In this document: positions 33,805-55,066 of the stretch, one piece after another
How the letters are laid out: each line of letters opens with the position of its first letter
How positions within the stretch are numbered: position 1 is the first letter of the stretch
NCBI GenBank assembly: GCA_965116315.1
Contig: OZ220672.1
Coordinates: forward strand, 1,636,777 to 1,700,776
Direction: 5' to 3'
Length of the DNA stretch: 64,000 bases
From: Dehalococcoidia bacterium
GTDB taxonomy: Bacteria > Chloroflexota > Dehalococcoidia > Lucifugimonadales > CAJWER01
The notes under the pieces: generated by a model
Databases searched by the model: none
What the model saw: the letters and a program-made list of their open reading frames with translations, nothing else
What the model was told of the DNA's origin: nothing
Translations under genes and position numbers: made by a program

Positions 33805-33889
33805 GGGGAAGTGTCGGAACTGGCAGACGAGCATGATTTAGGATCATGTGCCGCAAGGCGTCCGGGTTCGAGTCCCGGCTTCCCCACCA
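33805..33889 (+). tRNA. tRNA-Leu (anticodon UAG), CCA encoded
   Basis: Hand-folded. 7-bp acceptor stem GGGGAAG/CTTCCCC, anticodon stem CATGA/TCATG with loop TTTAGGA, long variable arm GCCGCAAGGCGT, T arm CCGGG-TTCGAGT-CCCGG, discriminator A + CCA. Confidence 0.9.
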
Positions 33890-35469: not shown

Positions 35470-35690
35470 CAGTCTCTCCTCCCTGTCTCTTCCTGTTCGT
35501 TCTGGCGGGAGCGCAGCCATTCCAGCCGCTCCCGTCTGCGCCACTCCCGCTCCTCCATGAACAGGCGGATGGCCTGCCTGAGCAACTCGCTCACGGAGAG
35601 GTCGTCCTTCTTCATCACACTCCGCACCTGCGCCTCCATCTCCGGGGGCAGGGAGAAGGTGATGGTCTTGGAACGCCTGGGGGTGGTCAT
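35469..35690 (-). CDS. ribbon-helix-helix (CopG/Arc-like) protein
   Basis: 73 aa. KTITFSLPPEMEAQVRSVMKKDDLSVSELLRQAIRLFM has the RHH pattern. Its stop overlaps the integrase ATG (ATGA). Confidence 0.7.
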   Translation of the reverse strand: MTTPRRSKTITFSLPPEMEAQVRSVMKKDDLSVSELLRQAIRLFMEEREWRRRERLEWLRSRQNEQEETGRRD

Positions 35691-35775
35691 GCTCTCTCTT
35701 TTTGCCTCTTGTTGTAGTGCTATGTCTTACAATACACTATCGAGGAACCGCATTGCAACTGTCTTGCCAGTGCCA

Positions 35776-36819
35776 TCACACGCCGTATCGCTCCCTCCAG
35801 TAACCTGCCCATTCTGCCGCTTCATCGGGGAGGGAACGGGTCACGGCGTCGAGCAGGGAAGATGGGGCCGCCATGTCGAACTGTGCGGCCGGTTCCTTCA
35901 AAGAAGCCCGCATCACAGCTTCCACCGTATCCAGTCCTGGGAATCGCCGGGCCAGCAAAGGAGAAGTGGTGGTCCTACCGTCGGAGATCGTTCGATAGGC
36001 CCAATTCTCCTGCGGCACTATCACCACCACTTTGGCCTCGTCGATTCCCAACTCGCCATCCTGGACCATGCGGTCTGCCAGAAGTCTCTGGCGCATGATC
36101 TGGTAGAACGGCTCATAGAGGAAATCGTCCAGGTCCGGCGCCACATCCAGATTGAAAGAGGAGAATGAAGCCCGGTAACGCTCGGCGTATCTCCGTCGGC
36201 GCGTGTCGCCTCGCGTCCCTTCGCCCATGAAATGAGGCCGAGTGCTCAGGTATTGCTCGACGTACTTCCACTCCAGAAGATAGGCCCGCCTTCTTCCCTT
36301 CGTGGTTACGGCGACGAGGAAGGCGTCGATGCTGGTGTTCTGAGCTCCCCTGGTCGTGCCTCCCTCCAGGGAACGGCCCAAGCCTATCCACTCGAACTCC
36401 ACGTCCGACTCATTTCCATTGTGAGAGATGTTCACCACACCTGCGACATCACCATCAAGGGTGCGTAGGACCGAAAGGAGCGCCCCTGGGATTCCGGCTA
36501 GGGGCAGCAGGAAGTTGACGCAGGCAACTTGGGAACTGGCCAGATTGCGGGTGGGGCCGTCTGACTTGGTGTCGTCGCCGCTCCTGGAGCTCTTCCACCA
36601 CTTGATCCCGCGCCGGGCGAAGAATTCGATGGCTCCGCCCTCTCCCCGGATGCCGGGATAGAGGTTGTCGAGCTCGCAGCCTATGGCCAGCAGATGGGGG
36701 TTGCGCACGCCCTTGTCGTCGGCAGGATGTCGCCCTTGGCCGCTGACTGTCGGAGATGCGTCCCTGAACAGCTGTTGTCGCCGTTTGGCTGACCGTTCAA
36801 AGCCGGTTCTTGATGGCAT
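35776..36819 (-). CDS. PD-(D/E)XK restriction-endonuclease-like protein
   Basis: Candidate nuclease motif IDAFLVAV...AYLLEWKY (D...ExK). LASSQVACVNFLLPL resembles the SSQ-containing motif of the PGN_0703-type putative restriction enzymes as I remember them. ATG at 36819 is preceded by GAGGAGAG; an alternative GTG is at 36864. Confidence 0.5.
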   Translation of the reverse strand: MPSRTGFERSAKRRQQLFRDASPTVSGQGRHPADDKGVRNPHLLAIGCELDNLYPGIRGEGGAIEFFARRGIKWWKSSRSGDDTKSDGPTRNLASSQVACVNFLLPLAGIPGALLSVLRTLDGDVAGVVNISHNGNESDVEFEWIGLGRSLEGGTTRGAQNTSIDAFLVAVTTKGRRRAYLLEWKYVEQYLSTRPHFMGEGTRGDTRRRRYAERYRASFSSFNLDVAPDLDDFLYEPFYQIMRQRLLADRMVQDGELGIDEAKVVVIVPQENWAYRTISDGRTTTSPLLARRFPGLDTVEAVMRASLKEPAAQFDMAAPSSLLDAVTRSLPDEAAEWAGYWRERYGV

Positions 36820-36880
36820 CCTCTTACTCTCCTCTGCCGTCGTGTCCACCTCAACTGGCTGCACAATCGGCTTGCAGGTC

Positions 36881-37813
36881 CTACCAGGGGCCGACCGCTG
36901 CCGCCGCCGCCACGGGCTTGCGCCTGCGCCCGGGCATGTCCGAGGCGATCATCTGAGGTCCGAGGACGGCGGCGTGGCTCTCGGGCACGGCGACGACCAC
37001 CACCCTCGCCAGCTTCCCGTTCCTGATGACGGGCCGGGCGAGGGCAGCATAGCCGCCGCCCAGGGCGAAGCGCGCTTCGCCGTAGCGGACAGCCTGTTCC
37101 GCCAGGGAGCCTGGGGGTATGGGCCTGCCCCAGCGGGGGATACCGCCCCGCTCTCCGCAGATGGGGAAGCCGGTCGGGTTGCCGAAGCCCCGCGTCCGCC
37201 GGACGACCTTGGCCCGCAGGTCGGGCAGCCTGCTTCCGTTCTTAGAGCCTATCCCGTCCTCCTGGGTGTACAGGACCACCATGAGGGGCGGGTCGCGCAG
37301 CACCTCGGCCAGCCGGATTGACACGGCGGCGTAGGAGCAGCGGAACGCCCGCTGCAACCTCAGCACGTCCAGGCCCCACTCCACGGCCAGTGGCTCGAAG
37401 GCCCTCGGCTGCATGAGCACTGCCGCAGCGAACCGCTCGGCCTGCCGGCACACCTTCCGGTCGGGCGGAGAGCCGGAGTCCATGTCGCAGAGGGTCTCGT
37501 AGATGATCTCGTAGGTCTCGTGTATCACCGAGTAGTCCTGCGTTCCCTCCCACAGGTCCTCCCGGTAGTGGATGTCGTAGCCGCCGCCCGGCGCGCTGTA
37601 GTGGATGCCCTTCACGTCCATGTGCCCGTTGCCCGACACCTCGCCGAACCCGGCCCGCTTCAGCAGGGCCTTCAACTGTTCCATCGAGGGACGGGCGGCC
37701 AGGTCGAAGTAGCGCACGAAGCGGGCGGCTAGGGTCTCAGGGTCTAGGGCCTCGCGGGGGCGTTCTTCCAGAAGGATGCGGCAGAAGTCCTCTCTCGTCC
37801 TGTTCATTCTCAC
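36881..37813 (-). CDS. ImmA/IrrE-family (COG2856) metallopeptidase-like protein with a C-terminal extension
   Basis: IHETYEIIYE sits at the position of HEXXH, followed by CRQAERFAAAVLMQPRAF (typical ImmA E..AN.FA..LLMP region). 310 aa. Overlaps the XRE gene stop. Confidence 0.65.
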   Translation of the reverse strand: MRMNRTREDFCRILLEERPREALDPETLAARFVRYFDLAARPSMEQLKALLKRAGFGEVSGNGHMDVKGIHYSAPGGGYDIHYREDLWEGTQDYSVIHETYEIIYETLCDMDSGSPPDRKVCRQAERFAAAVLMQPRAFEPLAVEWGLDVLRLQRAFRCSYAAVSIRLAEVLRDPPLMVVLYTQEDGIGSKNGSRLPDLRAKVVRRTRGFGNPTGFPICGERGGIPRWGRPIPPGSLAEQAVRYGEARFALGGGYAALARPVIRNGKLARVVVVAVPESHAAVLGPQMIASDMPGRRRKPVAAAAAVGPW

Positions 37814-38241
37814 TCCAGCAGCCTCTTATTGGCGAAACGCTCGTACATCTCGACGATGAACCGCTTGGTCTTCAGGGTGATGGGGCCGTCGGGCCGGGTG
37901 CCCACCCGGAACACAGGGTCGGCCAGGACGTACTGGTAGGCACGCTCCACCTCCATCGCCTCGTCGCTGAAGGGGTCGATGTGGGCCTCCCGCCCGGCCC
38001 TCTTCATCAGCTCCTCGGCGTCCACGTTGTAGAGGTGGGCCAGCTTGCGAACGACGTTTGAGCCGGGCATTCGGTCTCCCCGCTCTATCTGGGAGAGGTA
38101 GGAGCTGGAGACGCCGATGCGCTTGGTCACGTCCCGCAGGCTGAGGTCTCCCCGAAGCCGCCGGAGGAGCGGGCCTATGGCGTCGTCTCCCTCGATCTCG
38201 CGGCGTTCGTCCAGGTCCCGGTCGTCTTCAAGCTCGTCCAT
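37810..38241 (-). CDS. XRE-family HTH transcriptional regulator (ImmR-like)
   Basis: LRRLRGDLSLRDVTKRIGVSSSYLSQIERGDRMP is a canonical XRE HTH. First gene of the leftward operon. Confidence 0.85.
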   Translation of the reverse strand: MDELEDDRDLDERREIEGDDAIGPLLRRLRGDLSLRDVTKRIGVSSSYLSQIERGDRMPGSNVVRKLAHLYNVDAEELMKRAGREAHIDPFSDEAMEVERAYQYVLADPVFRVGTRPDGPITLKTKRFIVEMYERFANKRLLE

Positions 38242-39635: not shown

Positions 39636-39917
39636 ATGACGACTGAGGTACGGAAGCGAACGTTGAACCACCGGCCACCGCTCTTTCCCGAAGACTTCGG
39701 GGAGCGGCTGGAGCGGTTGAAGGAAATGTCGGGTCTGCCGTGGGGCGAGTTCTCCGAGCGACTCGGCGTGACGCAGACGGGCCTGAGAAAGTGGCGCAAT
39801 GGAGGGCCGCCCTCGGGGGCCTATTTCTGGGCGATTCTGAAGCTGGCCCGCGAGATTCCCGGAGGCTTCGACCTGATCATGCACGGCGGCGACGGCATGG
39901 AAGGGCATGAGGGCTGA
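39636..39917 (+). CDS. small HTH-like protein, paralogue 3 of 3
   Basis: 93 aa. PEDFGERLERLKEMSGLPWGEFSERLGVTQTGLRKWRNG..ILKLAREIPGG. Confidence 0.6.
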   Translation: MTTEVRKRTLNHRPPLFPEDFGERLERLKEMSGLPWGEFSERLGVTQTGLRKWRNGGPPSGAYFWAILKLAREIPGGFDLIMHGGDGMEGHEG

Positions 39918-40057
39918 GGGTGCCATCCAGAGGCGCTGAGGCTCCCGACCAGCGAAGGAGGGCCGGGCGGAGTGAACCGCCCGGCCCTCCTTTCGTTCTC
40001 CTCTACCCAGCCCCGCGCATGTCGGCGACCGCTCTATTGCTCTGCCGTGCGGTCGGG

Positions 40058-40504
40058 CTACTCCTCCGCCTCTTCGGCCCAGAAGGATGCCAGGAGCGTC
40101 TCGGGAGAGTCGTAACGCCGGTCGATCCACCAGGCGGCGTCGGACTGGGCCTTCAGCGGTTCGAGCACCCTCTCCTTCTGCGCCTCGAAGAACTCCGTGT
40201 CCTTCGCCACCCTTCCCTTCAGTTGCCCGCTGTCCCGCAGGTGATCCAGGTGCGCCTCGGCATCGGAGAGAGCCTCGTGGCGGAGGGTGAGCGCCCAGGC
40301 TGTCTGCTTGGGCGTCCCGGTAAGCGCGGGGAGCCCCTCGCCCTCCGCCACCGCTTCAGCCTGCGCCCTCTGACTCTCGATGTAGCAGGGTCGGCAGGTC
40401 CGCGCCCGCTCCCGACGCAGCTTGAGATCCAGGCGCTCTTCGGAGCCGCGCATCTTCACGACCTCTGAGTGCCCGCAGGCCCGGACGATCGTTTGCTTCG
40501 CCAT
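40058..40504 (-). CDS. hypothetical protein with an N-terminal Cys/His cluster
   Basis: 148 aa from the in-frame ATG at 40504 (MAKQTIVRACGHSEVV...TCRPCY). Acidic C-terminus. No family recognised. Confidence 0.5.
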   Translation of the reverse strand: MAKQTIVRACGHSEVVKMRGSEERLDLKLRRERARTCRPCYIESQRAQAEAVAEGEGLPALTGTPKQTAWALTLRHEALSDAEAHLDHLRDSGQLKGRVAKDTEFFEAQKERVLEPLKAQSDAAWWIDRRYDSPETLLASFWAEEAEE

Positions 40505-40748
40505 CTCCCGTCGCTCATTCTCAGATACCAACCATGTTACATCCGGGAGCCGCCCGGCGTCCGCTGCAATCCAGCGAGACCTGAACCCCGGGATTGCTCT
40601 GTCCTGCCCATCTGTCGGACAATGGGGCATAGCCCCATATACCCATAGACGACGTGAAGGCGCTCGCCGACCGCTTCGGTCCCCGCAGCGATGCGGACAT
40701 CCCTTTCATCCGAAGGGGCCGGGACGGAGATCGGGGGAGGTTCGAGCA

Positions 40749-42104
40749 ATGCCCAGGTACAGGAAGAAGGTCTGCCGAGGGTGCGGCCGCATCTACCAGC
40801 GTCGGTATGTGAGAACATCCGGCGTCCTGGGCTGGTGCGGTCCCAGCTGTTACCTGAAGTCGTACCATCGGCGGAGGAAGGGCAAGGCGGCGGACGAACC
40901 CCCGGTCCCATTCGACGACGGCGCCATTCGGGAGCCTCGGGTGTTGGAGGCCCTTGCCCATGTGCTCCGGGAAGCCTCTCAGGAGGAGGGAACGGTTGCC
41001 GGGGAAGCGGCGGCTCAGGAGACCGAATATACCGGCGCTATGAACATCGAGGTCGTGGCGGACCGCGCCCTGGTTGCGCATACGCGGCTAGGCGGTGACG
41101 GCCGGGTCGAGGTCGAGTGGGTGGGTCGCTGCTGGGCGTGGCTGACCGAAGGCGACGTCCCATCGCTCATGGATGTGGTGGTCAGAGACGGCGAGATCGT
41201 CAAGCTGTTGGAGCCGGGGCAGGTGCGGCGCGTCCGGGCGATGGAGCGGACCATAGAGACGGCTGGGGGCGAGGTCGTCGGTCTTGAGGTGTGGATGGAG
41301 TTCAAGGGGTTTAGGGCGGAGTCCGAACCGGACGACCGGGCGGCGGCGATGGGGTTGCGGGAGGGGACGAAAGTTCGCATAACCGGTGAACGCAGCAGGG
41401 CCGAGCGGGGCAAGGTCGGCACCCTGTTGAGGTTCATCGCGGCCGTGGTCGAGGTGGACGGCAAGCGGTTCGGAACAGGACTGGAGAAACTGGAGCCGCT
41501 GGACAGCCCCGATGGGCCGCCGCATGCGGTCGAAGACGGCGTCATCGGGGAGGCCGGTGACGTCGAGGAAGGGGACGGGCCTAGCGAGTCAATGGTCGAG
41601 GTGGTGGCGGACCGCGCCCTCGTTGCGCGGACGCGGTTCGGCGAGGACGGCCGCGTCGGCGTCGAGTGGGTGGGCCGCTGCTGGGTGTGGCTGACCGAAG
41701 GAGAGTCCCCTTCGCTCATGGACGTGGCGGTCGGGGAAGCCGAGGTCGCCAAGCTGCTGGAACCGGGCCGGGTGCGGCGGGTCCGGGCAGTGGAGCGGGC
41801 CATCGAGACGGACGAGGGAGAGGTCGATGGCCTGGAGCTGCGGGCGGAGTCGGGGTCGGAGCCTGAGCCGGACCTCAGGGTGGCGGCCAGAGGGCTCTGG
41901 GAGGGAGGAAAGGTCCGCTTGCAGCCAGAGTATCCCTGGCGTGAAGAGGAGGGCAAAATAGGGACGCTGCTGAGGTTCTCCGTGGCACTCCTGGAGGTGG
42001 ACGGCAGGAAGTTCGCCATAGGACCGAGGGACCTGGAACCGGTCGACAGCTCGGAGGGATCGCCTACAGGACTAGGAAGGGGCGGAAGCCAAACCGAAGG
42101 ATAA
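40749..42104 (+). CDS. zinc-ribbon protein with an internal ~180-aa tandem duplication
   Basis: 451 aa from the in-frame ATG at 40749 (MPRYRKKVCRGCGRIY...WCGPSCY). The block VEVVADRALVA.TR.G.DGRV.VEWVGRCW.WLTEG..PSLMDV ... GK.GTLLRF...VEVDG.KF...LEP.D occurs twice (nt ~41046-41595 and ~41596-42100). Confidence 0.55.
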   Translation: MPRYRKKVCRGCGRIYQRRYVRTSGVLGWCGPSCYLKSYHRRRKGKAADEPPVPFDDGAIREPRVLEALAHVLREASQEEGTVAGEAAAQETEYTGAMNIEVVADRALVAHTRLGGDGRVEVEWVGRCWAWLTEGDVPSLMDVVVRDGEIVKLLEPGQVRRVRAMERTIETAGGEVVGLEVWMEFKGFRAESEPDDRAAAMGLREGTKVRITGERSRAERGKVGTLLRFIAAVVEVDGKRFGTGLEKLEPLDSPDGPPHAVEDGVIGEAGDVEEGDGPSESMVEVVADRALVARTRFGEDGRVGVEWVGRCWVWLTEGESPSLMDVAVGEAEVAKLLEPGRVRRVRAVERAIETDEGEVDGLELRAESGSEPEPDLRVAARGLWEGGKVRLQPEYPWREEEGKIGTLLRFSVALLEVDGRKFAIGPRDLEPVDSSEGSPTGLGRGGSQTEG

Positions 42105-42178
42105 TTGAACCTATCCCCTTCATCCTGACGATGCGCAAGGTTTATGACCTCGTCTACGATTCAGTCCTCTGCAATCCG

Positions 42179-45100
42179 CTATTGTAGTAGCTTGGAGGAC
42201 AGCTCTGTCAGAGGAACCCCATCGCTTTCCCAGATTGACCTCGCGATGCTTATTCGTGTGTTACCGCCCGTGACGATCAGATGCACACCGTCGGCGTATT
42301 CACCGGTTATCTGGCCTCGCTCCTGCTCGAACTTATCGAGTTCATCACACAATTCCGACACACGTTCGCCGATGTCCCCAACGAACCGCATACTTGCCTT
42401 AACGTCGACTAGCTCCGGTTCATCTTCCGAGTCCACAGGAACCACACAGAGCAGGAAACGATCACCTTGTTTGACCGCATTTCTCGCCTGGCTCGGTGTC
42501 ATTCGCGCGTCATCGGTTCGTGTGGCCTTTACCTCTACAAGCCAACTCTCATCGTCTTTCGATATTTTCAACTCCCCCGCATCGTCCTCCGATAAATCCT
42601 CTGTCGCATCGGCTGCCACCTTGATCACCAAGTCGGCGCCCACTCTAGTTTTCTCAACCAAGTACCCTTCGTTTTCGAGGTTTTCCTTGACGAGACATTC
42701 TACGAGATTCCCGAATTGCTGATTGCGATGTACTCTCTGCGTCTGTTTGATGCGGTCTGCAAGGTAGTCACTGACAGCTTCATCCTTGCCCAATTGCGTC
42801 AAGAACTTAGGGACTACATCCAATCGGTCGAGCACATTCTCTGCCGCATTGATTATTGCCATGAGTTTGTTGTCCACACTGACGCGGGTCTGAGCGTCCA
42901 CAGCCATGGACTCTCTCACTAAGTCAAGACGTGAAACTCCAATTGCTTGGAGCAAACTGTCAACGGCGGGATTGTCGGGAATTGAAAGTGTACCGCTGTC
43001 CCGGAACAAGCGACCAAGCGACTGAGCAGTCGCTGTTGTGTACCTGTCATTTCCAAGGGGGACCCAGCTGTTCTCTACTACAGTCGGTAGCCACTGACTC
43101 TGATAATGGTTGTGCTTGACATCGCACGTACAGAGTGCTTCCTCCGTCTGCAATCCTTGAGCGTCATGGACAACCAACCATTCAGTCAAGAATCTCCAGA
43201 AAAGGCGAGCACGTCGCTGGCTCCCGCGCGCCCGCCTGATGACGCTGTTGTCGTCGCCCCTGAAATGTACTATATCGGTTAGTTTGACTGCCTCATGTGC
43301 TTCATGCCTTGCGCCCTCAGCTAATGCTGGCAAGGGTTCGTCGGGCAAGAACCTGGGATGTCGAACCTCACGGGAGACCACTATTGAAGCTCTAACGATT
43401 TGGAACTCGCTCAACTTCTGCCAAACCTCAGCATGAGGGACCTCGTCATAGAATGCTGTTGATAGAATTCGCGCTGGCGGGAAGAGTTCCAAAAACTCCT
43501 GAAGGTCTTCGTCCCAGAGTGTTGCCGGCGCAAGAGGGACTTCTTCGTCAATCTGTCCGTCCGGGGCCAGCCAAACGACATGCTTGTCGCTGTCTTCCTC
43601 CTCTTGGCAGAACACAGGGAAACCACGTAGACGGTCCCATTCCTCATGCTTGGTGATCCAAGCGAACGCTCGAGTACTGCCCATAGCAAAGGCATCATCG
43701 AGATCACCACTAGCGGCGATTTCTCTAAGCTCCTCAATGACTTCTTTGACTACATCCTGATTTCGTTTGACATCCTTCCCGTCTTCACTATCAAGGGAAG
43801 TAAGTCGTTTGTCACGAAGTTCCTCCCTTAGTTTTAAGCCAACTTCATCAGCTATGTCCTTTAGCTCTTCATCAATGTTCTCATCGCGAAAGAGATTCCC
43901 TAGCTTATCGAGAGATCCCGACTGGTCCAAGATCAAGTAGCGGCTATTGACCTCGTCGGCATGTTCACCACCCCTCAGGAACGCAAGGACATTATCCAGC
44001 CATTCGGTGGCATCTATGCCTTCTACTAGCGCATCCTGGAGGTTCTCGATATTGCCATAAGTCTCATCCTCTGAGCTTCTCGCCACTCGCTCGATGTAGC
44101 GAGCAAATCCGGCTCCATCAAGCACTCCGTCGAATTCGGTAGTGTCGCAGCCACTCAGTGTGGCCCAGCTCTTTACCGCCTTGTTCCAACCAACTACCTC
44201 TCTCCGTCTTGGTAGTCTTGAACGAAACGCTTTCAGCCCACTCAGCAAGTCCCAGAGGGTTTCAACTTTGGTATCCTCGTCGGCGAGAGGAAGGAGCGAC
44301 TCCGAAGGAGCCAGCGCACCCTCACCATACTCGCAGAGGACGGCAGGGGTACCAAGTAGAGGGCCTAGTAGATTCTCAGTAAGATGTTCTCGAAGCTTTT
44401 CGGGGACCAGCCATTCCCTATCGGGGATAGGTGGCACATCCGCTAACGTCGATACGTCATCCCACGCCGACTCACCCGCAAACTGAATGAGCCGGATAAG
44501 AAGTGTGCAGGCTTCTTCCACGGCCGCCTGATTGAGGAGATTGGCCTCGTCGCTCTCGTTCAACCAGAGGTTTACTCCGTCCCGGTCTTCATCTGACGGG
44601 GTAAACTGAAAGCTGTTTATAATGGCGGGAAAACTGAAGTTCTCGGTTCCAATCAATGGAAGCCCCAGAAACAACCTGGGAATATCTGCAACTTGCAGGC
44701 AAGATGTAGAGTCTCCTAGCGTAGCTGCCTGCACAGCAATGGAGGTGGCTTCTTTCTTGATCAGGAGATACTTGCTGCTGGTCCAATTGTCGGGGCTTGT
44801 TCGCCGGACCGTGACTTCCTGCACATCATTATCCTGTAACTGCTTCCGTTCAGTGACGTTGAAACTCACGAATTCACCTAGAGACTCGACAGAAATTTCA
44901 CTGAACTCTTCATTGAATGCAAGGATGAGAGGAGACAGCATTTCCAGACTGGAGATGCCTTGGCTCACGACCCTAGCCGCTGCCTCACCTTCAACGGTAT
45001 ACCGGAACCTAGTCGTATAACCATGTGGTAAAGTCACCGCCTGGACAGACGTCAGAGAAGCATTGAATCTCCTTGCGGACTCTCGCATATCGTCATCTAT

Positions 45101-45553
45101 CGACTGGATTGAAGTGGGTGCCCTTCGCACAGGAAAATTGAAACCCCGGCCGTCAACGAGCTTCCCTGAAACATAGATTTCGTTGGAGAGCAGATGCGTC
45201 GTGAGTAACCCACTTCCGTATTGCCCTAGCTTCGACTTGTCCTCGGCCTTGGTTGATCCATGGTAAATGACGCGAGCTATTTCTTTCATCTCGAATGGTC
45301 GGCCATTGTGCTCTAGCAGGACTTGCCCTTGATCGTGTCTGACTGAGCAAGTGAGGCTCATTGCGCCGTTGGGAGAAGCGTCACGTGCATTCTGCAACAG
45401 CTCCCATATCCAACGCGTTTGTACACGGTCTCTCCGTGCCGCGAGATTGGTGAGAAGTTGATAAACACGTTGTGCGTTAGTCGTGGTAAGTGTGTCTCGT
45501 TCGATCTGTTCCCAATCACTCTTGTCCACTATCATTTGTTCTCCCGGGTCCAT
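42179..45553 (-). CDS. GHKL (sacsin/HATPase_c_3-like) ATPase fused to a C-terminal DUF3883 PD-(D/E)XK nuclease-like domain
   Basis: 1124 aa. N-box WIWELLQNARDA and G-box GQYGSGLLT lie near the N-terminus. The C-terminus (GADLVIKV...SWLVEVKATR...FLLCVV) is as in DUF3883. GC is about 43-52% on hand-counted lines, against about 70% in the flanks. Confidence 0.8.
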   Translation of the reverse strand: MDPGEQMIVDKSDWEQIERDTLTTTNAQRVYQLLTNLAARRDRVQTRWIWELLQNARDASPNGAMSLTCSVRHDQGQVLLEHNGRPFEMKEIARVIYHGSTKAEDKSKLGQYGSGLLTTHLLSNEIYVSGKLVDGRGFNFPVRRAPTSIQSIDDDMRESARRFNASLTSVQAVTLPHGYTTRFRYTVEGEAAARVVSQGISSLEMLSPLILAFNEEFSEISVESLGEFVSFNVTERKQLQDNDVQEVTVRRTSPDNWTSSKYLLIKKEATSIAVQAATLGDSTSCLQVADIPRLFLGLPLIGTENFSFPAIINSFQFTPSDEDRDGVNLWLNESDEANLLNQAAVEEACTLLIRLIQFAGESAWDDVSTLADVPPIPDREWLVPEKLREHLTENLLGPLLGTPAVLCEYGEGALAPSESLLPLADEDTKVETLWDLLSGLKAFRSRLPRRREVVGWNKAVKSWATLSGCDTTEFDGVLDGAGFARYIERVARSSEDETYGNIENLQDALVEGIDATEWLDNVLAFLRGGEHADEVNSRYLILDQSGSLDKLGNLFRDENIDEELKDIADEVGLKLREELRDKRLTSLDSEDGKDVKRNQDVVKEVIEELREIAASGDLDDAFAMGSTRAFAWITKHEEWDRLRGFPVFCQEEEDSDKHVVWLAPDGQIDEEVPLAPATLWDEDLQEFLELFPPARILSTAFYDEVPHAEVWQKLSEFQIVRASIVVSREVRHPRFLPDEPLPALAEGARHEAHEAVKLTDIVHFRGDDNSVIRRARGSQRRARLFWRFLTEWLVVHDAQGLQTEEALCTCDVKHNHYQSQWLPTVVENSWVPLGNDRYTTATAQSLGRLFRDSGTLSIPDNPAVDSLLQAIGVSRLDLVRESMAVDAQTRVSVDNKLMAIINAAENVLDRLDVVPKFLTQLGKDEAVSDYLADRIKQTQRVHRNQQFGNLVECLVKENLENEGYLVEKTRVGADLVIKVAADATEDLSEDDAGELKISKDDESWLVEVKATRTDDARMTPSQARNAVKQGDRFLLCVVPVDSEDEPELVDVKASMRFVGDIGERVSELCDELDKFEQERGQITGEYADGVHLIVTGGNTRISIARSIWESDGVPLTELSSKLLQ

Positions 45554-45658
45554 TCGGTGGACCAGAAGGGTTGAGGCTAGGAATCAGTGTAGGTTAATGA
45601 TCGCTCGGAGTCCACATTGTTATTCTTCCTTGAGGCGTACATTAGAACGCGTGCCCCA

Positions 45659-46414
45659 TCACCGTCTGACGACGCCCTGGGGATCTCGCCTCGAAGCCCT
45701 CCGGTTGAGGGCGCGGTCGAGGATGCCGAAGGCGAGGTGGAGGCCCAACTCCGTCACTCTCTTGGACGGCTCCTCCTCCTGCTTGAGGAGGGCATGGGCG
45801 ATGAGGTCGGCCATCTGGAGCAGGTCGTCGTCCTGGGAGCTTCGGAAGGTGGGGCCGCCGATGATTCGCTCTATGGGAATGTTCCTGGTGGCCTCCCCGT
45901 CCTCCCACGCCTCGTACCTGCTGGGCACGGGGTTGCGGCTCCTGAGCCTGCCGTAGAGCCTTCTGACCATGTTCTCCCCGCCCTCGTCGAAGATGAGGTG
46001 GGCGTAGCGGCCCTCCCCGGCGACGGAGGTGTTGATGCGGTTGAGGAGACGGTCGAGGCTGACCCGCTCGTAGCCGTTGAAGTCGGCCTTGCGCAGACAG
46101 ACGTTGATGACCTCAATGCCCCCGCGATGGGCGGCGCTCTCGATGATGCGCAGGCCATCCATGAAAATCTCGGCCCCTTGCTCCGGGGTTAGCCTGCGGC
46201 CCGTGTTGTCGATGCGGGCCAGCTTGCCCCGTCCGGCCAGCAGGTCGCAGGCGTGCAGCTCCCGGCTGGTGGGGACGTTGTAGTCGCCTGCCATGGCGCT
46301 GCGCCAGTCCTGGATGGTGGCGTGCAAGCCGTTCCACCGCTCGGCGTCCACGCCCAGGGCGGAGCGGACGTAGCAGGTGGGGCCTTCTGACTCGTCGATG
46401 TAGTAGATTCTCAT
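45659..46414 (-). CDS. DUF3800 domain protein
   Basis: 251 aa. Begins MRIYYIDESE and has the distal LLQMADLIAHAL motif; both are characteristic of DUF3800 as I remember it. Confidence 0.7.
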   Translation of the reverse strand: MRIYYIDESEGPTCYVRSALGVDAERWNGLHATIQDWRSAMAGDYNVPTSRELHACDLLAGRGKLARIDNTGRRLTPEQGAEIFMDGLRIIESAAHRGGIEVINVCLRKADFNGYERVSLDRLLNRINTSVAGEGRYAHLIFDEGGENMVRRLYGRLRSRNPVPSRYEAWEDGEATRNIPIERIIGGPTFRSSQDDDLLQMADLIAHALLKQEEEPSKRVTELGLHLAFGILDRALNRRASRRDPQGVVRR

Positions 46415-46444: not shown

Positions 46445-48076
46445 TCAGCGGCTGCTGAAGGCGTGGACCGGTTCGGGGAAGCCCGGTCTGCGCCAGGTGC
46501 GGCCCAGCGGCCCCTCCCGCTCGACCAGATCCCTGTGGGAGACCAGCAGCGGGACCTCAACCCCGGCCCGCGCCATCTCCTCCCCGGCGATGCGCAGGAA
46601 GTGGGTCTGGGCGATGTCGTCGTCGAAGACGACCAGCACGTCGGGCCGCGTCCCGTGGTCGTCGGTCGGGCGGCGGGACGAGTAGTAGCGCAGGTAGGGT
46701 GCGAGGCGGGCAGCCATCGTGACTGGCCTGACGGCCCGGCGCTCCCACTCCAGGAAGAAGGCCCAGGTCACATCGCCCTTGCGCAGGACGCCGAAGGCGT
46801 CTGGGTGGATGGAGCGGAGCCGGTCGGCGTGCCGGAAGTAGCGGGAGGCCCTGCGGGGCGGGTCGAGCTGGACGATCTCCCTTGAGCGGGAGCGTGCCTG
46901 CCTCGCCAGGGCCGCCATGAAACCGTGGACGGCGGCGGTGTGCTGGACGTTTCTGAGAAGCTGTCCCGTGCGCTTGCCGGAGACGGTGCGCCAATCGACG
47001 GCATCGCCGGTGGAAGCGGCGCTCCATCGCTTCCTGGAGCCGCCCACGGAGGCGCGGTCCCTCCGGGCCAGCATCGCCAGCCCCCGGTCGGTGACGGCGA
47101 GACGGCGGCGGCCCTCGACGGTCGTGACCGCCGCCAGGCTCAATGCGGTCAGCCGCCCGACGACCTCGGAGAGCCTCGACCGCTTCAGCCCCATCAGCGC
47201 GCCGAGGTGGACGGCGGTCAGCCAGGGCCAGTCGGAGAGCAGGTCGAGGGCGCGCTTCTCGAAGGGCTTGAGCAGGGCGGGCAGCATCCAGTCCTCTCCG
47301 GCCTTCATGTCCAGGTCTGCGGGGAGAGACGCCCGCGCCGGAGGCTCCTCGTCGAGCCAGCGGCCTCGCGGACCGGTGTGGTCGAGGACGGTGCGCAGGT
47401 CCAGGAGCGCTGCCCCGGAGGGGGTACGCCAGATGGGCGCACCGGCCCCCGCAGAGGAGGCGTCCCGCTCCAGGGCGAGGTAGGCGATGAACGGCGCTCC
47501 TGCCAGCAGCCTGCGGGCGTGGCGCAGCCGGGTCTCGTCGGGCATGAGCAGCAGCGCGGCGGCGGGCTGCGCCCCCTCCCTGAGCCGCCAGAGCCGCTTG
47601 GAGAAGCCGGTGCGGTCGGTGGCCGGTCCCTGCCTGACGATTGCGATCACGCGCCCGTCGGGGAGGGCGACGACTGCGTCCATCGGCATGGCGCGGTACC
47701 ACCGCAAGCGAATGGGGTGGGCGAGGGTCGATACGGCGGAGGCGATGCGGTAGACGACGCCAACGGCGTCCAGCCGCTCCAAGAGGAGCCGCCGCCACTG
47801 GTCCGAGACCGGTCGGCTGCGGAGCAGTCCGCCCACACTCTCGCCCTCCTTGCGGGCCAGCAGTCGCAGCCCCGCATCGGTGAGGCAGTAGCGGCGGGTC
47901 GCCGGTGTCAGATGGTAGGCGTGGGGGAAGGAGGCCACCAGCCCCTCGCATTCGAGACTCTCAACGGCCCGATAGACTGTGCCCCGCGACCAGCCGGAGA
48001 CTGCCACCGCCTCCAGCCGGTCGAGGAGGGGCATGTGGGAGAGCAGCCGCAGGGTGTCGGCTTCGACGCGCCTCAC
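46445..48076 (-). CDS. replication-relaxation (Replic_Relax) family protein with a duplicated module
   Basis: 543 aa from the GTG at 48076, which overlaps the T4CP stop (GTGA). The C-terminal half (HTAAVHGF...IHPDAFGVL...AFFLEWERRAVRP..LAPYLRYY) fits Replic_Relax. The N-terminal half repeats the wHTH + similar-module layout in degenerate form. Confidence 0.65.
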   Translation of the reverse strand: MRRVEADTLRLLSHMPLLDRLEAVAVSGWSRGTVYRAVESLECEGLVASFPHAYHLTPATRRYCLTDAGLRLLARKEGESVGGLLRSRPVSDQWRRLLLERLDAVGVVYRIASAVSTLAHPIRLRWYRAMPMDAVVALPDGRVIAIVRQGPATDRTGFSKRLWRLREGAQPAAALLLMPDETRLRHARRLLAGAPFIAYLALERDASSAGAGAPIWRTPSGAALLDLRTVLDHTGPRGRWLDEEPPARASLPADLDMKAGEDWMLPALLKPFEKRALDLLSDWPWLTAVHLGALMGLKRSRLSEVVGRLTALSLAAVTTVEGRRRLAVTDRGLAMLARRDRASVGGSRKRWSAASTGDAVDWRTVSGKRTGQLLRNVQHTAAVHGFMAALARQARSRSREIVQLDPPRRASRYFRHADRLRSIHPDAFGVLRKGDVTWAFFLEWERRAVRPVTMAARLAPYLRYYSSRRPTDDHGTRPDVLVVFDDDIAQTHFLRIAGEEMARAGVEVPLLVSHRDLVEREGPLGRTWRRPGFPEPVHAFSSR

Positions 48077-50700
48077 TCCTCGCCCTCCCCGTCGTCCGAG
48101 TCCTGGGCGGGCCTGCCCGTTGGCGGCTGGAAGTGCTTGCTGCGCGTGTCCTTGCGCTCCAGGTCCTTGGGCGCGTCCTTCTGCTCGTTCTTGGCAGCGT
48201 CCTCGCCCTCCCTGGCCTCCTTGACGGCCTTGCGGAACTCCTCGACTCGCCTGCGGCCTTCGGCCTGCTGCGCGGCGATCTCCTCGTCGGTGGTGAGGTA
48301 GGAGGCCGCCTCTGCGGTGATGCGCTCGGCTATCGCGGGGTCTCCGTGCTCGGGCTTGCCCACCATCATGGAGAAAGCGGGCATCCGCTCCTTCTCCACG
48401 GTGGCGCGGACGTAGCACTGGTGGACGGGGAGGGACACGATGTCCTCCTCGCTCACCCGGTCCTTGCCCAGCTCCCACACCATCTGCCTGGCGTCGTTGC
48501 CCGCCACCTGGAAGACGGCGAGGCAGCCCACGTTGGCAAGCAGGGTGTCGCGCATGGTGCGGGAGAGGTCGTCGAGCTTGGCGAGGCTCTGGGTGGCCAG
48601 CACGAAGCTGGCCCCGAACTTCCCCAGCTCGCTGAGCATCGACTCGTAGTCCACGCCGGGCATGGACTGCATCTCGTCCACCACCACCAGCGCGCCGCGC
48701 CTCTGCTCCGGGGCGAGGCTTCCCTGCTCCCGTATCAACGCGTCCACCAGGTTGAGGAGGGACGCGCCCACCAGGGCGGCCACGTCCTTGCCCGCCTTGC
48801 CCTGGGCGGTTGAGACCAGCAGGATGCCGCCGTCCCGAACGACCCGGCGCATGTCGATGGTGGATCGGGGCTGTCCCAGGATGGCCCTTGCCCGCTTGGA
48901 GGAGGCGTAGTAGGAGAGACGGGTCTGGACGGGGGCCAGGGCGTCGGCCCTGGTCTCGCCCCGCCAGCCCTTGAAGTCCCTCCTCCACCACTGGAGCAGG
49001 AAGGGGTCGCTCACCCTGGTCAGCACCCCGTTCTTGAACTTGTCGTCGGCCAGGAGCGTCAGCGCGTCCAGGATGGTGAACTGCTCGTCGTCGGCGGTGT
49101 CCGGGTGCTCGTTGGCCTCGTGGAGGGTCTTGACGGTCTGCTCCAGGATGGACTGCATCCTCGGCCCCCACTGCTCCCACAGGCCCTTGGCGATGCGCAC
49201 GACGGAATCGGCGGTGCGGTCGCGGTCGGAGAAGATGCGGGTGTCGAGGAGGTTGACGCCGGGCGCTCCCCGGTCGTCGGCCAGGTCGATGAGCCGCACC
49301 TGCCCCACGAGGGACTCCGGCACCTGACGGAGCAGGCCGCCCACCAGGTCGGCGTGGGGGTCGACGACGATGATGGCGTCTCCGTCCCTGCCCTCGGCCT
49401 TCTCCTGCATCTTGTGCCGGACGATGTGGTGCATCAACGTGGACTTGCCCATGCGGGTCCTCGCCACGTAGAGGTGGTGCCGTCTGAGCAGGTCGGCGGG
49501 GAAGCGGATGGGCCGGGGCTTGCCCGCCGTGGTCTGCCCCACCGGCGCTCCTCCGCTGACGCCCCTGGCGGCGGGCATCAGCACCCTCGCTCCGGACCGC
49601 TCCACCAGGGGCGTCTCGTCACGCGCTCCGGGCGGGTGCCAGAGGGCCGCCGCCTCGCGGACGCCCAGGACGCTGCGCCTGCCGAAGAGTCCCGGGCCGG
49701 AGGGGTGGAGCATCGAGGGGTCGGGCGCGACGGGCCGTACCTTGCTCACCTGGAAGCGCGCCCCGGCGGGATGGTCGTAATGGCAGTAGGCGGCGGCCAC
49801 CGGCTCAAGCATCTCCCTGGCGCGCCGCCGTCCATCCCCCGGTTCCTCCGTCGCCGGCAGGACCGCAGTGACCTGAAGCTCACCGTCGAAGGCGATGCGG
49901 GAGACCTTCTCCCTGATGAGCAGGGGGTCGTAGACCCGCTTTCCCGCCTTCTTGATGCGGTGCCACAGCCAACCGCCTGCGGCCAGGGCTGCGGCGACGC
50001 CGATTCCCATGGCCACGGCCTTCCACGTCTCGCCCGCCTGCACCCACAGGTAGCCCTTGAGGGCGGCCAGGGCGGCAACTCCGAGGACGGCCATCGTCAC
50101 GCCGTCCGTCTGGAGGGGCCGGGTCTGGTATGTGTAGGAGGGCTCGTACCGCTCAGGCACGGGTTTCTTGTGGGCCTTCTCCATGTGCGCCTGAGACCAG
50201 TCGGGTCCCAGGGAGCGAAGCATCAGCCGCGCCACGATGCGCTCGTTCTCCCCCAGGTTGGACAGTGCCCCCAGGAGAGCGATGAGCGGGTCCGAGCCGG
50301 GGTCGAGCAGGTCGTCGTCACGGAAGGTGCGCAGGGGGACGTACTCGGGGCCGTCGGCCCGCAGGGTCATGCTCCACGCCTGCTCACCCTCGTCCAGGCG
50401 CAGAGGGTCGTCCTCCATCGGCACATCGTGGATGCGGGCCTGGGGGTAGTGGGCCCCGATCTGTCCTTGCACCACCTGCCTGTCGAGGCAGCGGGCCAGC
50501 AGGGTCACGCCGTTCGTATCCCCCGCAAGCTCCAGGGAGAAGGGTTCGGGAACGGCGATGGACTGGAGCATGTTCTCCACGCCGAGCATGGTGCGCTCCC
50601 CGTCCCTGGGCGGCGTCACCGCCAGCAGCGCGGGTTTCCTATCCTCGTCTTTCGGCAGCCACTTCATCGGGTTCAGCTTCAATTGCTCTACTCCTTTCAT
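48073..50700 (-). CDS. type IV coupling protein (VirD4/TraD/TcpA-like ATPase)
   Basis: 875 aa. Two hydrophobic segments around residues 200-250. Walker A VARTRMGKST, Walker B ALVVVDEMQS, followed by FGASFVLATQS. Confidence 0.8.
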   Translation of the reverse strand: MKGVEQLKLNPMKWLPKDEDRKPALLAVTPPRDGERTMLGVENMLQSIAVPEPFSLELAGDTNGVTLLARCLDRQVVQGQIGAHYPQARIHDVPMEDDPLRLDEGEQAWSMTLRADGPEYVPLRTFRDDDLLDPGSDPLIALLGALSNLGENERIVARLMLRSLGPDWSQAHMEKAHKKPVPERYEPSYTYQTRPLQTDGVTMAVLGVAALAALKGYLWVQAGETWKAVAMGIGVAAALAAGGWLWHRIKKAGKRVYDPLLIREKVSRIAFDGELQVTAVLPATEEPGDGRRRAREMLEPVAAAYCHYDHPAGARFQVSKVRPVAPDPSMLHPSGPGLFGRRSVLGVREAAALWHPPGARDETPLVERSGARVLMPAARGVSGGAPVGQTTAGKPRPIRFPADLLRRHHLYVARTRMGKSTLMHHIVRHKMQEKAEGRDGDAIIVVDPHADLVGGLLRQVPESLVGQVRLIDLADDRGAPGVNLLDTRIFSDRDRTADSVVRIAKGLWEQWGPRMQSILEQTVKTLHEANEHPDTADDEQFTILDALTLLADDKFKNGVLTRVSDPFLLQWWRRDFKGWRGETRADALAPVQTRLSYYASSKRARAILGQPRSTIDMRRVVRDGGILLVSTAQGKAGKDVAALVGASLLNLVDALIREQGSLAPEQRRGALVVVDEMQSMPGVDYESMLSELGKFGASFVLATQSLAKLDDLSRTMRDTLLANVGCLAVFQVAGNDARQMVWELGKDRVSEEDIVSLPVHQCYVRATVEKERMPAFSMMVGKPEHGDPAIAERITAEAASYLTTDEEIAAQQAEGRRRVEEFRKAVKEAREGEDAAKNEQKDAPKDLERKDTRSKHFQPPTGRPAQDSDDGEGEE

Positions 50701-50734
50701 TACAGGTTCGGATGGACGGTTGAGCAGGCCGCGC

Positions 50735-53002
50735 CTAGTGCTTTCCCGGAATCCACTCGATCACCTCCGTCTCCTCCGGCGTGGCTTCGATGCGCACGGG
50801 GAAGCGGTGTCCCTTCGACAACAGGAGGCCGTCGCCGCGCGGACACGACAGCAGCCATCGCTGGAGGTCTTCGGGCAGGTCGAAGGCGTCTCCGACCGTG
50901 CTTATCGCCGCCGCGTCCTGCTGGAGGAGCAGCTTGAAGGCGGCGTTCTGAAGCAGGGCACGCCCGGAGTGCCCCGTGATGGCGCGGGACGAGTCTTCCG
51001 ACAGAAGGTCCTGGACGTCCTGGGTGATGAACTGCAACCCCAGCCGGTGCTTGCGGGCGCGCTTGGCCATAGACACCATGAATGCAGCGCCCTCGGGGTG
51101 CTGCATGATGCTCCAAACCTCGTCCACGACGAGAAGGCGGGGCTTGGGGTCCTGGGCCGCCGCCGCCCACACCGTCTCGGTGCAGACCATCGCGGCGGCG
51201 GGCCTCAGCTCCGGCTCCAGGAGGCGAAGGTCGAAGACGGTGACCAGGGCCTCGTTGCCCAGCAGGTCGTCTCCCTCGTCGGAGAGGAGGTTGCGCAGGC
51301 TGCCTGTGGCGAAGGGCCGCAGCAGCCGCGAGAGGTCCTCCTCCTCCCGTTCGAGGTAGGCGTAGAAGTCGCGGAAGCCGTTGCGCCCCCCGGCCCGGGC
51401 GTAGTAACCCGCAAGGGCGTGGTCGAGGGCGGCCCGCCGCTCGGCGGAAAGGCGCTCGCCGACCATGACCTCGATTAGTCGCCGGAGGCTGCCGATGCGC
51501 TGCAACAGCTCCTCGGAGTCTCCCTTGTCGATGACGAAGGGATTCATGCCCTGTCCGGGGACGCCGGGGGAGAGGACGCGCCCACCTGCGGCGCGGGCCA
51601 TGTCCGCGTACTCGCCCTCCGGGTCGATGACGTAGGCAGTCACACCCCGGCACAGGCCCCTCAGCACGCCCAGCTTTGTAGCGAACGATTTACCGCTCCC
51701 CGACCTGGCGAGGACGGCGGTGTTGGCGTTCAGGTGCGTTCCGTCCCAGGGGTCGTAGACGACGGGGGAGCAGGCCCGCATGTCGATGCCGTAGAGGGTC
51801 CCCCGGCGGGTGTCGAGGTCGGGCGGCGAGAAGGGGAAGAGTTGGGCCAGGCTCGACGTGTCGAGACTGCGCCACTCGGCGACGGCGTTCAGTCCCAGGG
51901 GCAACGTCGATAGCAGCCCCTCGCGCTGCCTGAACCCCAGGTTGTCCAGCTTGCCGAGGGTCGCCCCGAAGTGGCCCTTGGCCCGCTGGGTCATCTCCTT
52001 GAGGGACGCCTCGTCCTTCGCGTGAAGGGTGACGGACAACGACGAATGAAATAGCCGCTCCCTGCCGCGCTGCACCTCGTCGCGTAGACGAGTCACGTCC
52101 TCCAGGGCGATCTGCGCCTCCGGGGACATGGTGCGTCCCCGCTTGAACGACAGGGACTGGGCCGACTCGAATCGCACCTTCTGCCACTCCAGCGTCCTCG
52201 CGGCCTGCTCCGTGGGGATCGGCCCCAGGTGGATCGACAGGTCCATCGGCGCTCCCGCAGCCATGAGGTTCTGTAGGAAGCCGGGGGCCAGGGAGCGGGG
52301 CCACTTGCCCAGGTGAAGGGAGCGCACCAGCCGGTCGCCGATCCGCATCTCGCGTCGGCCCATCTCAACCTCGACCGGCGTGTCGGCGTCAAACTCCCCA
52401 GGGGTAGTTCCGAGGCCGGCAGATACGAGAAACATCCGCAGCCGCCTGCCGCCGAGGGGATGGACGGACAGCCCGGCCCGCGCCAGCAGGCCCCGCAGCT
52501 CGTCGAACCGGGAGTGCTCGCACACGGCGTAGAATCGCCGGTCGAGGATGCCGTCGCGGGACTCCAAGTCGGTCAGGAGCCCGCGCAGGGACTCGGCTGC
52601 CGCCTTCGTCTGCGGGGGCAGGTCGGGCGGCTGGGCCTCGGTGAGCTTGTCCCTCAGCCCGTCCAGGCGCGGGGGGTGCTGCCTGACGAGGAGCTGCACG
52701 GGGAAGTCGCAGGCGTTGAGCGCCCCGGCGAAGGCCCCCAGCTTCGGCTCGTCGATCTCAAGGCCCATCACCTCGCACACTCCCAGCTTCACCCCGTCCA
52801 GCCGGACGGGTCCGTCGCCTTCGAGGTGGGACAGCATGAAGAACAGGGGCAGGTCGGGCGGCGGCTTGGGGGCCGGTGCCTGGGGTTCGGTCAATTGGGA
52901 TGCCGACGCTGTGTCGGCCCCCGGGGTGTCTTGCGGAGCGGTCGCCGCTTCGGGCAACCCCTCCGCTCCGTCTCTCTTGAATCGTGCGATCAGCTTCTTC
53001 AA
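50735..53002 (-). CDS. VirB4/TrbE-family conjugative transfer ATPase
   Basis: 755 aa. Walker A VLARSGSGKSFATK, Walker B RLLVVDEVWSIM, RKHRLGLQFITQ. TTG start with AAGGAGAG 7 nt upstream. Confidence 0.85.
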   Translation of the reverse strand: MKKLIARFKRDGAEGLPEAATAPQDTPGADTASASQLTEPQAPAPKPPPDLPLFFMLSHLEGDGPVRLDGVKLGVCEVMGLEIDEPKLGAFAGALNACDFPVQLLVRQHPPRLDGLRDKLTEAQPPDLPPQTKAAAESLRGLLTDLESRDGILDRRFYAVCEHSRFDELRGLLARAGLSVHPLGGRRLRMFLVSAGLGTTPGEFDADTPVEVEMGRREMRIGDRLVRSLHLGKWPRSLAPGFLQNLMAAGAPMDLSIHLGPIPTEQAARTLEWQKVRFESAQSLSFKRGRTMSPEAQIALEDVTRLRDEVQRGRERLFHSSLSVTLHAKDEASLKEMTQRAKGHFGATLGKLDNLGFRQREGLLSTLPLGLNAVAEWRSLDTSSLAQLFPFSPPDLDTRRGTLYGIDMRACSPVVYDPWDGTHLNANTAVLARSGSGKSFATKLGVLRGLCRGVTAYVIDPEGEYADMARAAGGRVLSPGVPGQGMNPFVIDKGDSEELLQRIGSLRRLIEVMVGERLSAERRAALDHALAGYYARAGGRNGFRDFYAYLEREEEDLSRLLRPFATGSLRNLLSDEGDDLLGNEALVTVFDLRLLEPELRPAAAMVCTETVWAAAAQDPKPRLLVVDEVWSIMQHPEGAAFMVSMAKRARKHRLGLQFITQDVQDLLSEDSSRAITGHSGRALLQNAAFKLLLQQDAAAISTVGDAFDLPEDLQRWLLSCPRGDGLLLSKGHRFPVRIEATPEETEVIEWIPGKH

Positions 53003-53021
53003 CTTGGTACTCTCCTTTGTG

Positions 53022-53354
53022 CTAGGGGGTGGGGAACGGGACGAGGCCGCTTCTCAGCAGCGCGGCGACACCTTTGGCCAAGAGCACCAGCACCAGGCCA
53101 ACGACCGCCATCACCACGGCGGTCCTGGCCCTGCCGCCGCCCCGGTCGTCCGCGCCCTCGGCCATCAGGACGAAGCCCGCCCAGACGATGGCGAAGAGAC
53201 AGAGGCCGGAGGCGGCGTAGGCCATCGCGGTGAGAACCTCGTCGAAGGCCGCGAGCATGGTCCGCTCCTCCGGTGGGGCCGCGCCGGTGGTCGCCAGCGC
53301 GGCCCCAGCCAGCAGCGTTGCCGTCAGCAAACGCCTCACCACGGCCACTCCCAT
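53022..53354 (-). CDS. TrbC/VirB2-like pilin candidate (second copy)
   Basis: About 110 aa. Signal-like N-terminus MGVAVVRRLLTATLLAGAALATTGA, then two hydrophobic helices separated by a short charged loop. An alternative GTG start is at 53372. Confidence 0.5.
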   Translation of the reverse strand: MGVAVVRRLLTATLLAGAALATTGAAPPEERTMLAAFDEVLTAMAYAASGLCLFAIVWAGFVLMAEGADDRGGGRARTAVVMAVVGLVLVLLAKGVAALLRSGLVPFPTP

Positions 53355-55045: not shown

Positions 55046-55066
55046 GGTCTTCTCCTTCCCTTCCGT

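Follow-up and report, generated by a model that had tools for sequence, protein, structure and literature searches.

What does a gene of foreign base composition, encoding an ATPase fused to a nuclease, do inside a mobile element of a Dehalococcoidia bacterium? The question is raised by a 64,000-nucleotide stretch of contig OZ220672.1 (assembly GCA_965116315.1, positions 1,636,777 to 1,700,776; "the window" below), which carries an integrative and conjugative element (ICE) of the type that uses a type IV secretion system (T4SS). The gene sits in the cargo hotspot of this ICE, directly after a gene for a DUF3800 protein. A preliminary description of the DNA had taken the pair for a candidate defence module whose architecture lacked an experimentally named system, with the MORC/paraMORC proteins as its precedent. 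Very probably, however, the gene is tmtA, which alone makes up the anti-phage system Tiamat. It would represent a short (~1100 amino acids, aa) subfamily, carried as cargo in the hotspot, and the DUF3800 protein would have no involvement.

The identification begins with a profile. The TmtA model PDLC03967 of PADLOC matches the window protein with 522 bits (E=1e-156), with residues 9-1122 aligned to profile positions 3-1056 of 1063. Tiamat itself was verified with system SG165 from Bacillus cereus FORC_005, whose 1590-aa TmtA is annotated as "Hsp90, DUF3684, DUF3883" (Millman et al. 2022, preprint supplement). Profile match and domain string together mean that the architecture supposed to be nameless already had a name. 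Standard annotators (PADLOC, DefenseFinder) would call this gene Tiamat, and it is therefore not a new system.

How close is the gene in the window to the one that was verified? Both are stand-alone genes whose products have an N-terminal Hsp90/sacsin-like ATPase and, for the short form as judged at the level of the family, a C-terminal DUF3883. The window protein is, however, ~470 aa shorter, gives no Pfam match to the DUF3684 of the published domain string, and belongs to model PDLC03967, whereas the B. cereus protein is assigned to another TmtA model, PDLC03964 (462 bits). Comparison with the verified protein covered its first ~400 aa. Here, the first 399 aa match PDLC03967 at positions 7-413 (E=1.1e-13), and BLASTP of the fragment against the window protein detects pairwise similarity only in the ATPase core (aa 47-131; 30% identity over 86 aa, E=6e-8). 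Unlike the B. cereus protein, the short form comes mostly from what we take to be uncultured, sponge-associated lineages.

The published family list offers another way to connect the two forms. Table S20 of Millman et al., which also includes Dehalococcoidia single-cell genomes and Caldilinea, enters a TmtA gene on the + strand of Poribacteria WGA-3G POR3G_contig_6.7. On the same contig and strand, one of our homologous loci (L032) encodes a full-length homologue that shares 39% identity with residues 22-1122 of the window protein. This coincidence of contig and strand puts the short form inside the family; on sequence grounds, it belongs to Tiamat as published.

The architecture had been read correctly. 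The 1124-aa open reading frame (ORF) lies on the minus strand with its reported motifs exactly in place: WIWELLQNARDA at aa 48-59, GQYGSGLLT at 110-118, GADLVIKV at 972-979, SWLVEVKATR at 1003-1012 and FLLCVV at 1033-1038. Its three parts are also as described, a GHKL/sacsin-like ATPase, a long middle and a nuclease of the DUF3883 type with a PD-(D/E)XK core. The annotated ATG is at 45553. An alternative start, Met7 (45535), is preceded by GGGAG and would give 1118 aa, in keeping with the 1114-1118 aa of the closest homologues; for these reasons Met7 may be the true start.

The ATPase is recognized by the NCBIfam model NF047352 ("sacsin N-terminal ATP-binding-like"), whose score of 59.5 bits exceeds the cutoff of 50; Pfam SACS reaches 14.8 bits (cutoff 32.8). 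Conservation was read from an alignment of 49 sequences that are 41-94% identical to the window protein, and every statement of invariance below refers to it. Motif I (E51, N55, D58) is invariant, and so is the G2 box GQYGSG (G110, G113, G115), which aligns to the GQFGVGF of Hsp90. Motif II reads H82-N83-G84. Its His and Gly are invariant, and Asn replaces the canonical Asp in 47 of the 49 sequences; the verified TmtA likewise has Asn here (NNG).

Structure prediction points the same way as NF047352. An AlphaFold2 model built on the 49 homologues (mean predicted local distance difference test score, pLDDT, of 83.6) finds full-length Hsp90, GRP94 and TRAP1 as its top Foldseek matches in the PDB (E ~1e-7, 500-750 aligned columns). 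These matches argue for an N-terminal part that is Hsp90 N+M-like, as in sacsin, and the TmtA ATPase is accordingly modelled, and here predicted, as structurally Hsp90/sacsin-like. Searches of the PDB by sequence gave nothing with the single sequence and only matches at E>0.1 with a profile (the Hsp90 G-box and an Hjc-like protein); no TmtA structure was found.

This bears on the MORC/paraMORC framing, which is not supported. Those proteins do combine a GHKL ATPase with a restriction-fold nuclease in conflict systems, and share the logic of an ATP-driven clamp joined to a nuclease. However, they are MutL-like (GHKL+S5) and usually encoded in multi-gene operons, whereas TmtA stands alone and is Hsp90 N+M-like. 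No HATPase_c_3 or MORC profile passes in Pfam for the window protein, the structural matches are to Hsp90 and not to MutL or MORC, and no operon is conserved. Membership was rejected.

At the other end of the protein, the residues E952, D974, E1007, K1009 and Q1022 are invariant and read E...D...EVK...Q, the PD-(D/E)XK set. The domain shows a helix-strands-helix-strand topology in the AlphaFold2 model and has weak fold matches to RecU/Hjc resolvases. Pfam was run on a sample of the aligned homologues, of which P0036 and P0096 pass for NOV_C (26.5-26.6 bits). DUF3883 has been placed in the PD-(D/E)XK superfamily (PMC3424549) and termed a novel restriction endonuclease (REase) domain (PMC3710099). 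The profile hits that the preliminary description expected were thus only partly obtained: HATPase_c_3 is absent and DUF3883 falls just short in the window protein itself, and it is the sacsin-type ATPase that is recognized outright.

Between ATPase and nuclease lies a region that is mostly helical. Pfam gives no match over aa 331-962, and a Foldseek search of its separate model against the PDB gives a best E=0.26, with nothing at E<=0.001. Within it, H750, C808, C810 and H814 are all invariant, and the cluster C808-x-C810-x3-H814 together with H750 is a candidate metal site.

How might such a protein defend a cell? A sensor-plus-effector mechanism is suggested chiefly because the ATPase module is conserved in distant relatives, encoded on plasmids, with changeable C-termini or effectors. 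On plasmid CP009368.1 of B. cereus FM1, a 799-aa protein matches PDLC03967 at positions 24-570 only (348 bits). In that locus (L091 4902-8285) it is followed by an AlbA_2-TIR gene, with a KAP P-loop gene nearby; the protein and the AlbA_2-TIR gene are possibly an unnamed two-gene relative of Tiamat. A 1068-aa protein from a Calothrix plasmid aligns to the TmtA family profile over columns 22-599 only (hhalign probability 100%, E=1e-48) and continues into an unrelated C-terminus; its gene lies two genes downstream of a TIR gene and a TPR gene. The effectors seen with the N-terminal module are a PD-(D/E)XK nuclease in cis (TmtA), an adjacent AlbA_2-TIR gene (the B. cereus plasmid) and a 440-aa C-terminus (Calothrix).

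We infer from these arrangements that TmtA may be an ATP-driven, Hsp90-like sensor that licenses a PD-(D/E)XK nuclease. Here, the N-terminal ~600 aa, a Hsp90/sacsin-like GHKL module, would be the ATP-dependent sensor or clamp, probably dimerizing upon ATP binding as other GHKL proteins do. The sensor would recognize a cue of infection (foreign DNA or a phage protein), and this would license the C-terminal DUF3883 nuclease to cut DNA. The invader would be destroyed, or the infection would be abortive. A broader proposal can be made only tentatively. The ~600-aa module could be a general infection-sensor scaffold with interchangeable effectors, and Tiamat would then be a single branch of a larger defence superfamily that has no name yet. 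The short form, with its central region of orphan fold and its invariant Cys/His cluster, would sense a cue other than that of the B. cereus protein.

Signalling is, of course, not the only way to use a nuclease. TmtA could act as a Type IV-like restriction enzyme dependent on modification or structure, whose ATPase serves translocation or clamping rather than signalling or abortive infection. Iyer, Abhiman and Aravind reportedly predicted, in 2008, combinations of GHKL and REase domains in restriction contexts. The nuclease is indeed fused in cis and of a restriction-fold family, and three neighbours of TmtA genes are Type II methyltransferases. Direct restriction is nevertheless rather unlikely. 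No cognate methylase is conserved, neither Pfam nor Foldseek of the central region detected a known modification-reading domain, and in one relative the partner of this sensor module is TIR, an effector typical of abortive infection.

The company kept by the short form bears on whether it is a defence gene at all. A search of a 90%-clustered database gave 514 homologues at E<=1e-5, mostly full length; at E<=1e-30, 502 representatives of clusters at 50% identity matched, with lengths that hold near 1070-1130 aa down to ~26% identity. A scan of genomes, one per species, confirmed 242 encoding stretches, of which 80 loci were kept. By record title, ~23 of these are from Dehalococcoidia, SAR202 or other Chloroflexota and ~22 from Poribacteria; the others include Latescibacterota, Binatia, Gemmatimonadota, Acidobacteriota, Verrucomicrobiota, Planctomycetota and Proteobacteria. 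Many of these host lineages are presumably typical of sponge symbionts. In 52 of 72 loci the GC of the gene is lower than that of its flanks by at least 2 points (mean 5.8 points). Among the 136 immediate neighbours at the 72 genome loci, each Pfam family is found in 5 at most, and PADLOC finds among the neighbours only scattered methyltransferases, mad2 and LmuB; one locus (L003) adjoins CBASS genes and another (L004) a Fic gene. Short TmtA is a single-gene system without a conserved partner.

Could this be a housekeeping chaperone or DNA-repair factor, with its Hsp90/sacsin-like ATPase and resolvase-like nuclease? The Hsp90-like fold, the weak RecU/Hjc matches, the metabolic neighbours of several homologues and the domains held in common with the eukaryotic NO VEIN and sacsin proteins might encourage the thought. 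It is most improbable, given a patchy distribution over >10 phyla in contexts that are not conserved, a consistently foreign GC, discordant phylogenies of TmtA and the ICE backbone, presence/absence polymorphism at the hotspot and a match to a defence-system hidden Markov model (HMM) from end to end. A role in defence, which the preliminary description had already proposed, is supported as the best reading of the gene.

Several facts nevertheless weigh against assigning the gene to Tiamat and to the mechanism sketched above. The sole verified TmtA is the 1590-aa long form, with homology to the short form seen over its first ~400 aa, and a second TmtA candidate, a 1429-aa protein from Enterobacter, was marked as giving no defence in the screen of Millman et al. 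Recent reviews list the mechanism of Tiamat as unknown, and a literature search found no mechanistic paper on Tiamat or TmtA. In the window protein, two Pfam families stop just below their cutoffs: HATPase_c at 21.2 bits (cutoff 26.4) and NOV_C/DUF3883 (PF13020) at 21.3 bits (cutoff 22.1). The Asn of motif II (HNG rather than the motif with Asp) means that ATP hydrolysis is not assured, and the absence of a fold relative for the central 630 aa makes the sensing step conjecture. Many homologues, finally, lie amid genes of the housekeeping type and not in obvious defence islands.

What of the DUF3800 gene? The neighbour was named correctly, and its placing beside tmtA, co-oriented and 105 nucleotides away, makes it natural to ask whether the two form a new defence module of DUF3800 and GHKL-nuclease. 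The pairing recurs in six related Dehalococcoidia ICE loci, with a seventh (L079) in which TmtA is inverted and convergent with DUF3800. Such a module is nonetheless very unlikely, since every DUF3800-linked locus belongs to one ICE family, in which backbone similarity stops at the DUF3800 stop codon. Close DUF3800 homologues are found in only eight TmtA loci (seven distinct, L002 and L005 being the same place), all of them Dehalococcoidia ICE relatives, and the remaining ~70 genome loci of TmtA are without DUF3800. The DUF3800 protein, in turn, is represented by at least 120 clusters at >=73% identity, a number well above that for this TmtA lineage. Of the five distinct ICE relatives that were reached via DUF3800, none has TmtA. 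Their site is empty (L085 and L093/L094) or holds Trypsin_2 and Fic genes (L086-L089), an unidentified gene with a helix-turn-helix (HTH) gene (L090) or ThsB-TIR with 8xMP (L095).

Base composition separates the two genes as well. GC at third codon positions (GC3) is 0.90 in the DUF3800 gene and 0.55 in tmtA. The former value is host-like and the DUF3800 gene lies outside the low-GC tract, so that by composition it is part of the host or element and not of the insert. On all these comparisons the DUF3800 gene is ICE backbone and seems to have no part in TmtA defence, and its casting as a partner has to be given up. A weak PADLOC match of the DUF3800 protein to DruM (E=1e-3) was disregarded.

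That tmtA is foreign to its surroundings had been recognized from the GC content, and the dip is real. In 500-nucleotide windows, GC over ~42.0-45.7 kb is 0.50-0.55, against 0.62-0.70 downstream and 0.60-0.74 upstream; in 100-nucleotide windows the drop runs from ~42.1 kb to ~45.65 kb, with values of 0.42-0.58, so that the earlier hand counts of 43-52% were slightly low. The GC3 of tmtA compares with 0.85-0.93 in the surrounding genes. The gene was probably acquired horizontally, as a one-gene cassette. A scan for promoters and terminators around it gave none above shuffled expectation, and at the cassette edges a search for direct repeats gave a 14-nucleotide pair (40559/42164) that is, by estimate, at chance level; no target-site duplication is claimed.

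Comparison by blastn gives the variable region its limits. Identity of the backbone to related ICEs ends at 45659-45666, the DUF3800 stop codon, and resumes at ~39905. Two relatives, L007 and L005, share sequence with the window from 45747 and 55499 down to 42164 and 42166, respectively, and differ beyond; two loci outside any ICE, L064 and L006, match the window only at 45519-42210, within the tmtA ORF. Thus tmtA behaves as an independent cassette within the variable region. The hotspot contents in ICE relatives are other TmtA alleles, Trypsin and Fic, ThsB-TIR and 8xMP, the unidentified gene, or nothing. Further, TmtA and backbone do not diverge together. In L012, L060 and L011, DUF3800 is 67-88% identical and TmtA only 42%, which also speaks against the two-gene module; in L001 and L025, DUF3800 is 74-76% identical and TmtA 93-94%. 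This discordance implies repeated exchange of cassettes at one hotspot.

The preliminary description had called the gene ICE cargo, and conjugation genes, a serine recombinase and a variable region defined by blastn are all there (Table 1). Might TmtA then serve the ICE itself, excluding competing plasmids or ICEs or acting as an addiction module, rather than provide anti-phage immunity? Its position in a cargo hotspot beside transfer genes would suit such a role, as would the toxin- or defence-like nature of further occupants (Fic, TIR), and a search of a phage collection found no phage-encoded TmtA homologues. The idea is improbable all the same: most homologues are chromosomal and not in any ICE, no antitoxin-like partner is conserved, and the verified family member, in B. 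cereus, protected against phages.

TmtA shares domains with proteins both outside and within defence. With eukaryotic sacsin it shares the sacsin-type Hsp90-like ATP-binding domain (NF047352), and sacsin also joins Hsp90-like modules to a C-terminal domain of a nuclease superfamily (HEPN). Sacsin differs in its repeated ATPase modules and its DnaJ and HEPN domains, and is described as a chaperone. The plant protein NO VEIN (NOV) shares the C-terminal Pfam domain NOV_C with TmtA, and Tiamat HMMs cross-match plant genomes. Within defence, HmaA of the Hma system (helicase and DUF3883) has a C-terminal nuclease of the same PD-(D/E)XK effector family, but couples it to an SF2/Snf2 helicase motor in a three-gene system, where TmtA uses a GHKL ATPase in a single gene.

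The locus retains some value for work on how Tiamat acts. The compact ~1100-aa form, with clear invariant ATPase, Cys/His and nuclease residues, is a tractable construct for mutants. It is of mild interest in itself as a short subfamily with a central region that is an orphan in fold, an invariant Cys/His cluster and a possible general sensor module. The locus shows, too, that a widespread family of ICEs in sponge-associated Dehalococcoidia has a defined hotspot for cargo. Different relatives have divergent alleles of TmtA, a TIR gene, a Fic gene or an empty site there, which makes the hotspot a useful natural system for following the movement of defence genes between symbionts of different phyla.

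Table 1. Features of the tmtA locus and the surrounding ICE, in window coordinates
Feature	Position	Strand	Basis or remark
tmtA, short-form Tiamat gene	42179..45553	(-)	1124 aa, ATG start; ORF call and PADLOC TmtA match
Conserved N-terminal module, aa ~22-600 (ATPase, beta-rich domain, first helical domain)	43754..45490	(-)	kept in relatives with other C-termini/effectors
N-terminal GHKL (Bergerat) ATPase domain, sacsin/Hsp90-like, aa ~40-215	44909..45436	(-)	NF047352, invariant motifs, Foldseek
Central region, aa 331-962, mostly helical	42668..44563	(-)	separate AlphaFold2 model, pLDDT 76
C808-x-C810-x3-H814 cluster	43112..43132	(-)	with H750 at 43304-43306; invariant
C-terminal PD-(D/E)XK nuclease domain, NOV_C/DUF3883 family, aa ~944-1058	42380..42724	(-)	Pfam near-threshold, invariant residues
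DUF3800 gene, ICE backbone, hotspot edge	45659..46414	(-)	251 aa; Pfam DUF3800 29.6 bits, cutoff 21
ICE cargo hotspot (variable region)	39906..45658	.	between DUF3800 stop codon and conserved regulatory module; blastn
ICE conjugation module	46445..56511	(-)	Pfam matches
TrbL/VirB6	55531-56511	(-)	Pfam
VirB4-like	50735-53002	(-)	Pfam
VirD4-like	48073-50700	(-)	Pfam
Replic_Relax	46445-48034	(-)	Pfam
ICE end region	33805..38241	.	tRNA-Leu to HTH; order also in L001
HTH	37810-38241	(-)	ICE end
M78 peptidase	36881-37813	(-)	ICE end
REase-ARP/PDDEXK_13	35776-36864	(-)	ICE end
Serine recombinase	33844-35544	(-)	ICE end
tRNA-Leu	33805-33889	(+)	ICE end

The reading frame of the conjugation module was settled by GC3. 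At the far end of the ICE, the tRNA-Leu and the large serine recombinase, which lie on opposite strands, overlap where the recombinase ORF has its 3' end. This overlap is probably the integration site and boundary of the ICE; in L001, which has the same gene order at this end, chromosomal genes come directly after the recombinase.

The ICE end region has variation of its own. A second cargo hotspot separates the M78 peptidase from the serine recombinase; here the window has REase-ARP/PDDEXK_13 and the relatives L086, L093 and L085 have ApeA-HEPN, an MTase-HNH fusion, or just a 76-aa ORF. The adjoining pair of HTH and M78 peptidase (36881-38241, minus strand) gives weak PADLOC matches to capH/capP, resembles damage-responsive regulators of the ImmR/ImmA or CapH/CapP type, and probably controls ICE induction.

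Two other observations concern the variable region itself. An ORF at 40422-42104 (plus strand) is convergent with tmtA and missing from some related ICEs. It has a CxxC motif at the start of its plausible coding part and two internal repeats of ~183 aa, whose DNA (41047-41301 and 41596-41850) is 82% identical; it has neither a Pfam nor a PADLOC match. At the inner edge of the region, 39955-39992 form a perfect 16-nucleotide GC-rich inverted repeat with a 6-nucleotide loop, in a 61-nucleotide stretch that is conserved in L005. Possibly it is a terminator, or else a recombination landmark. Beyond the conjugation module, ARAGORN calls a 98-nucleotide tRNA-Thr at 59869-59966 (plus strand) in a GC-rich, ORF-dense region; the call could be spurious, or the tRNA atypical.

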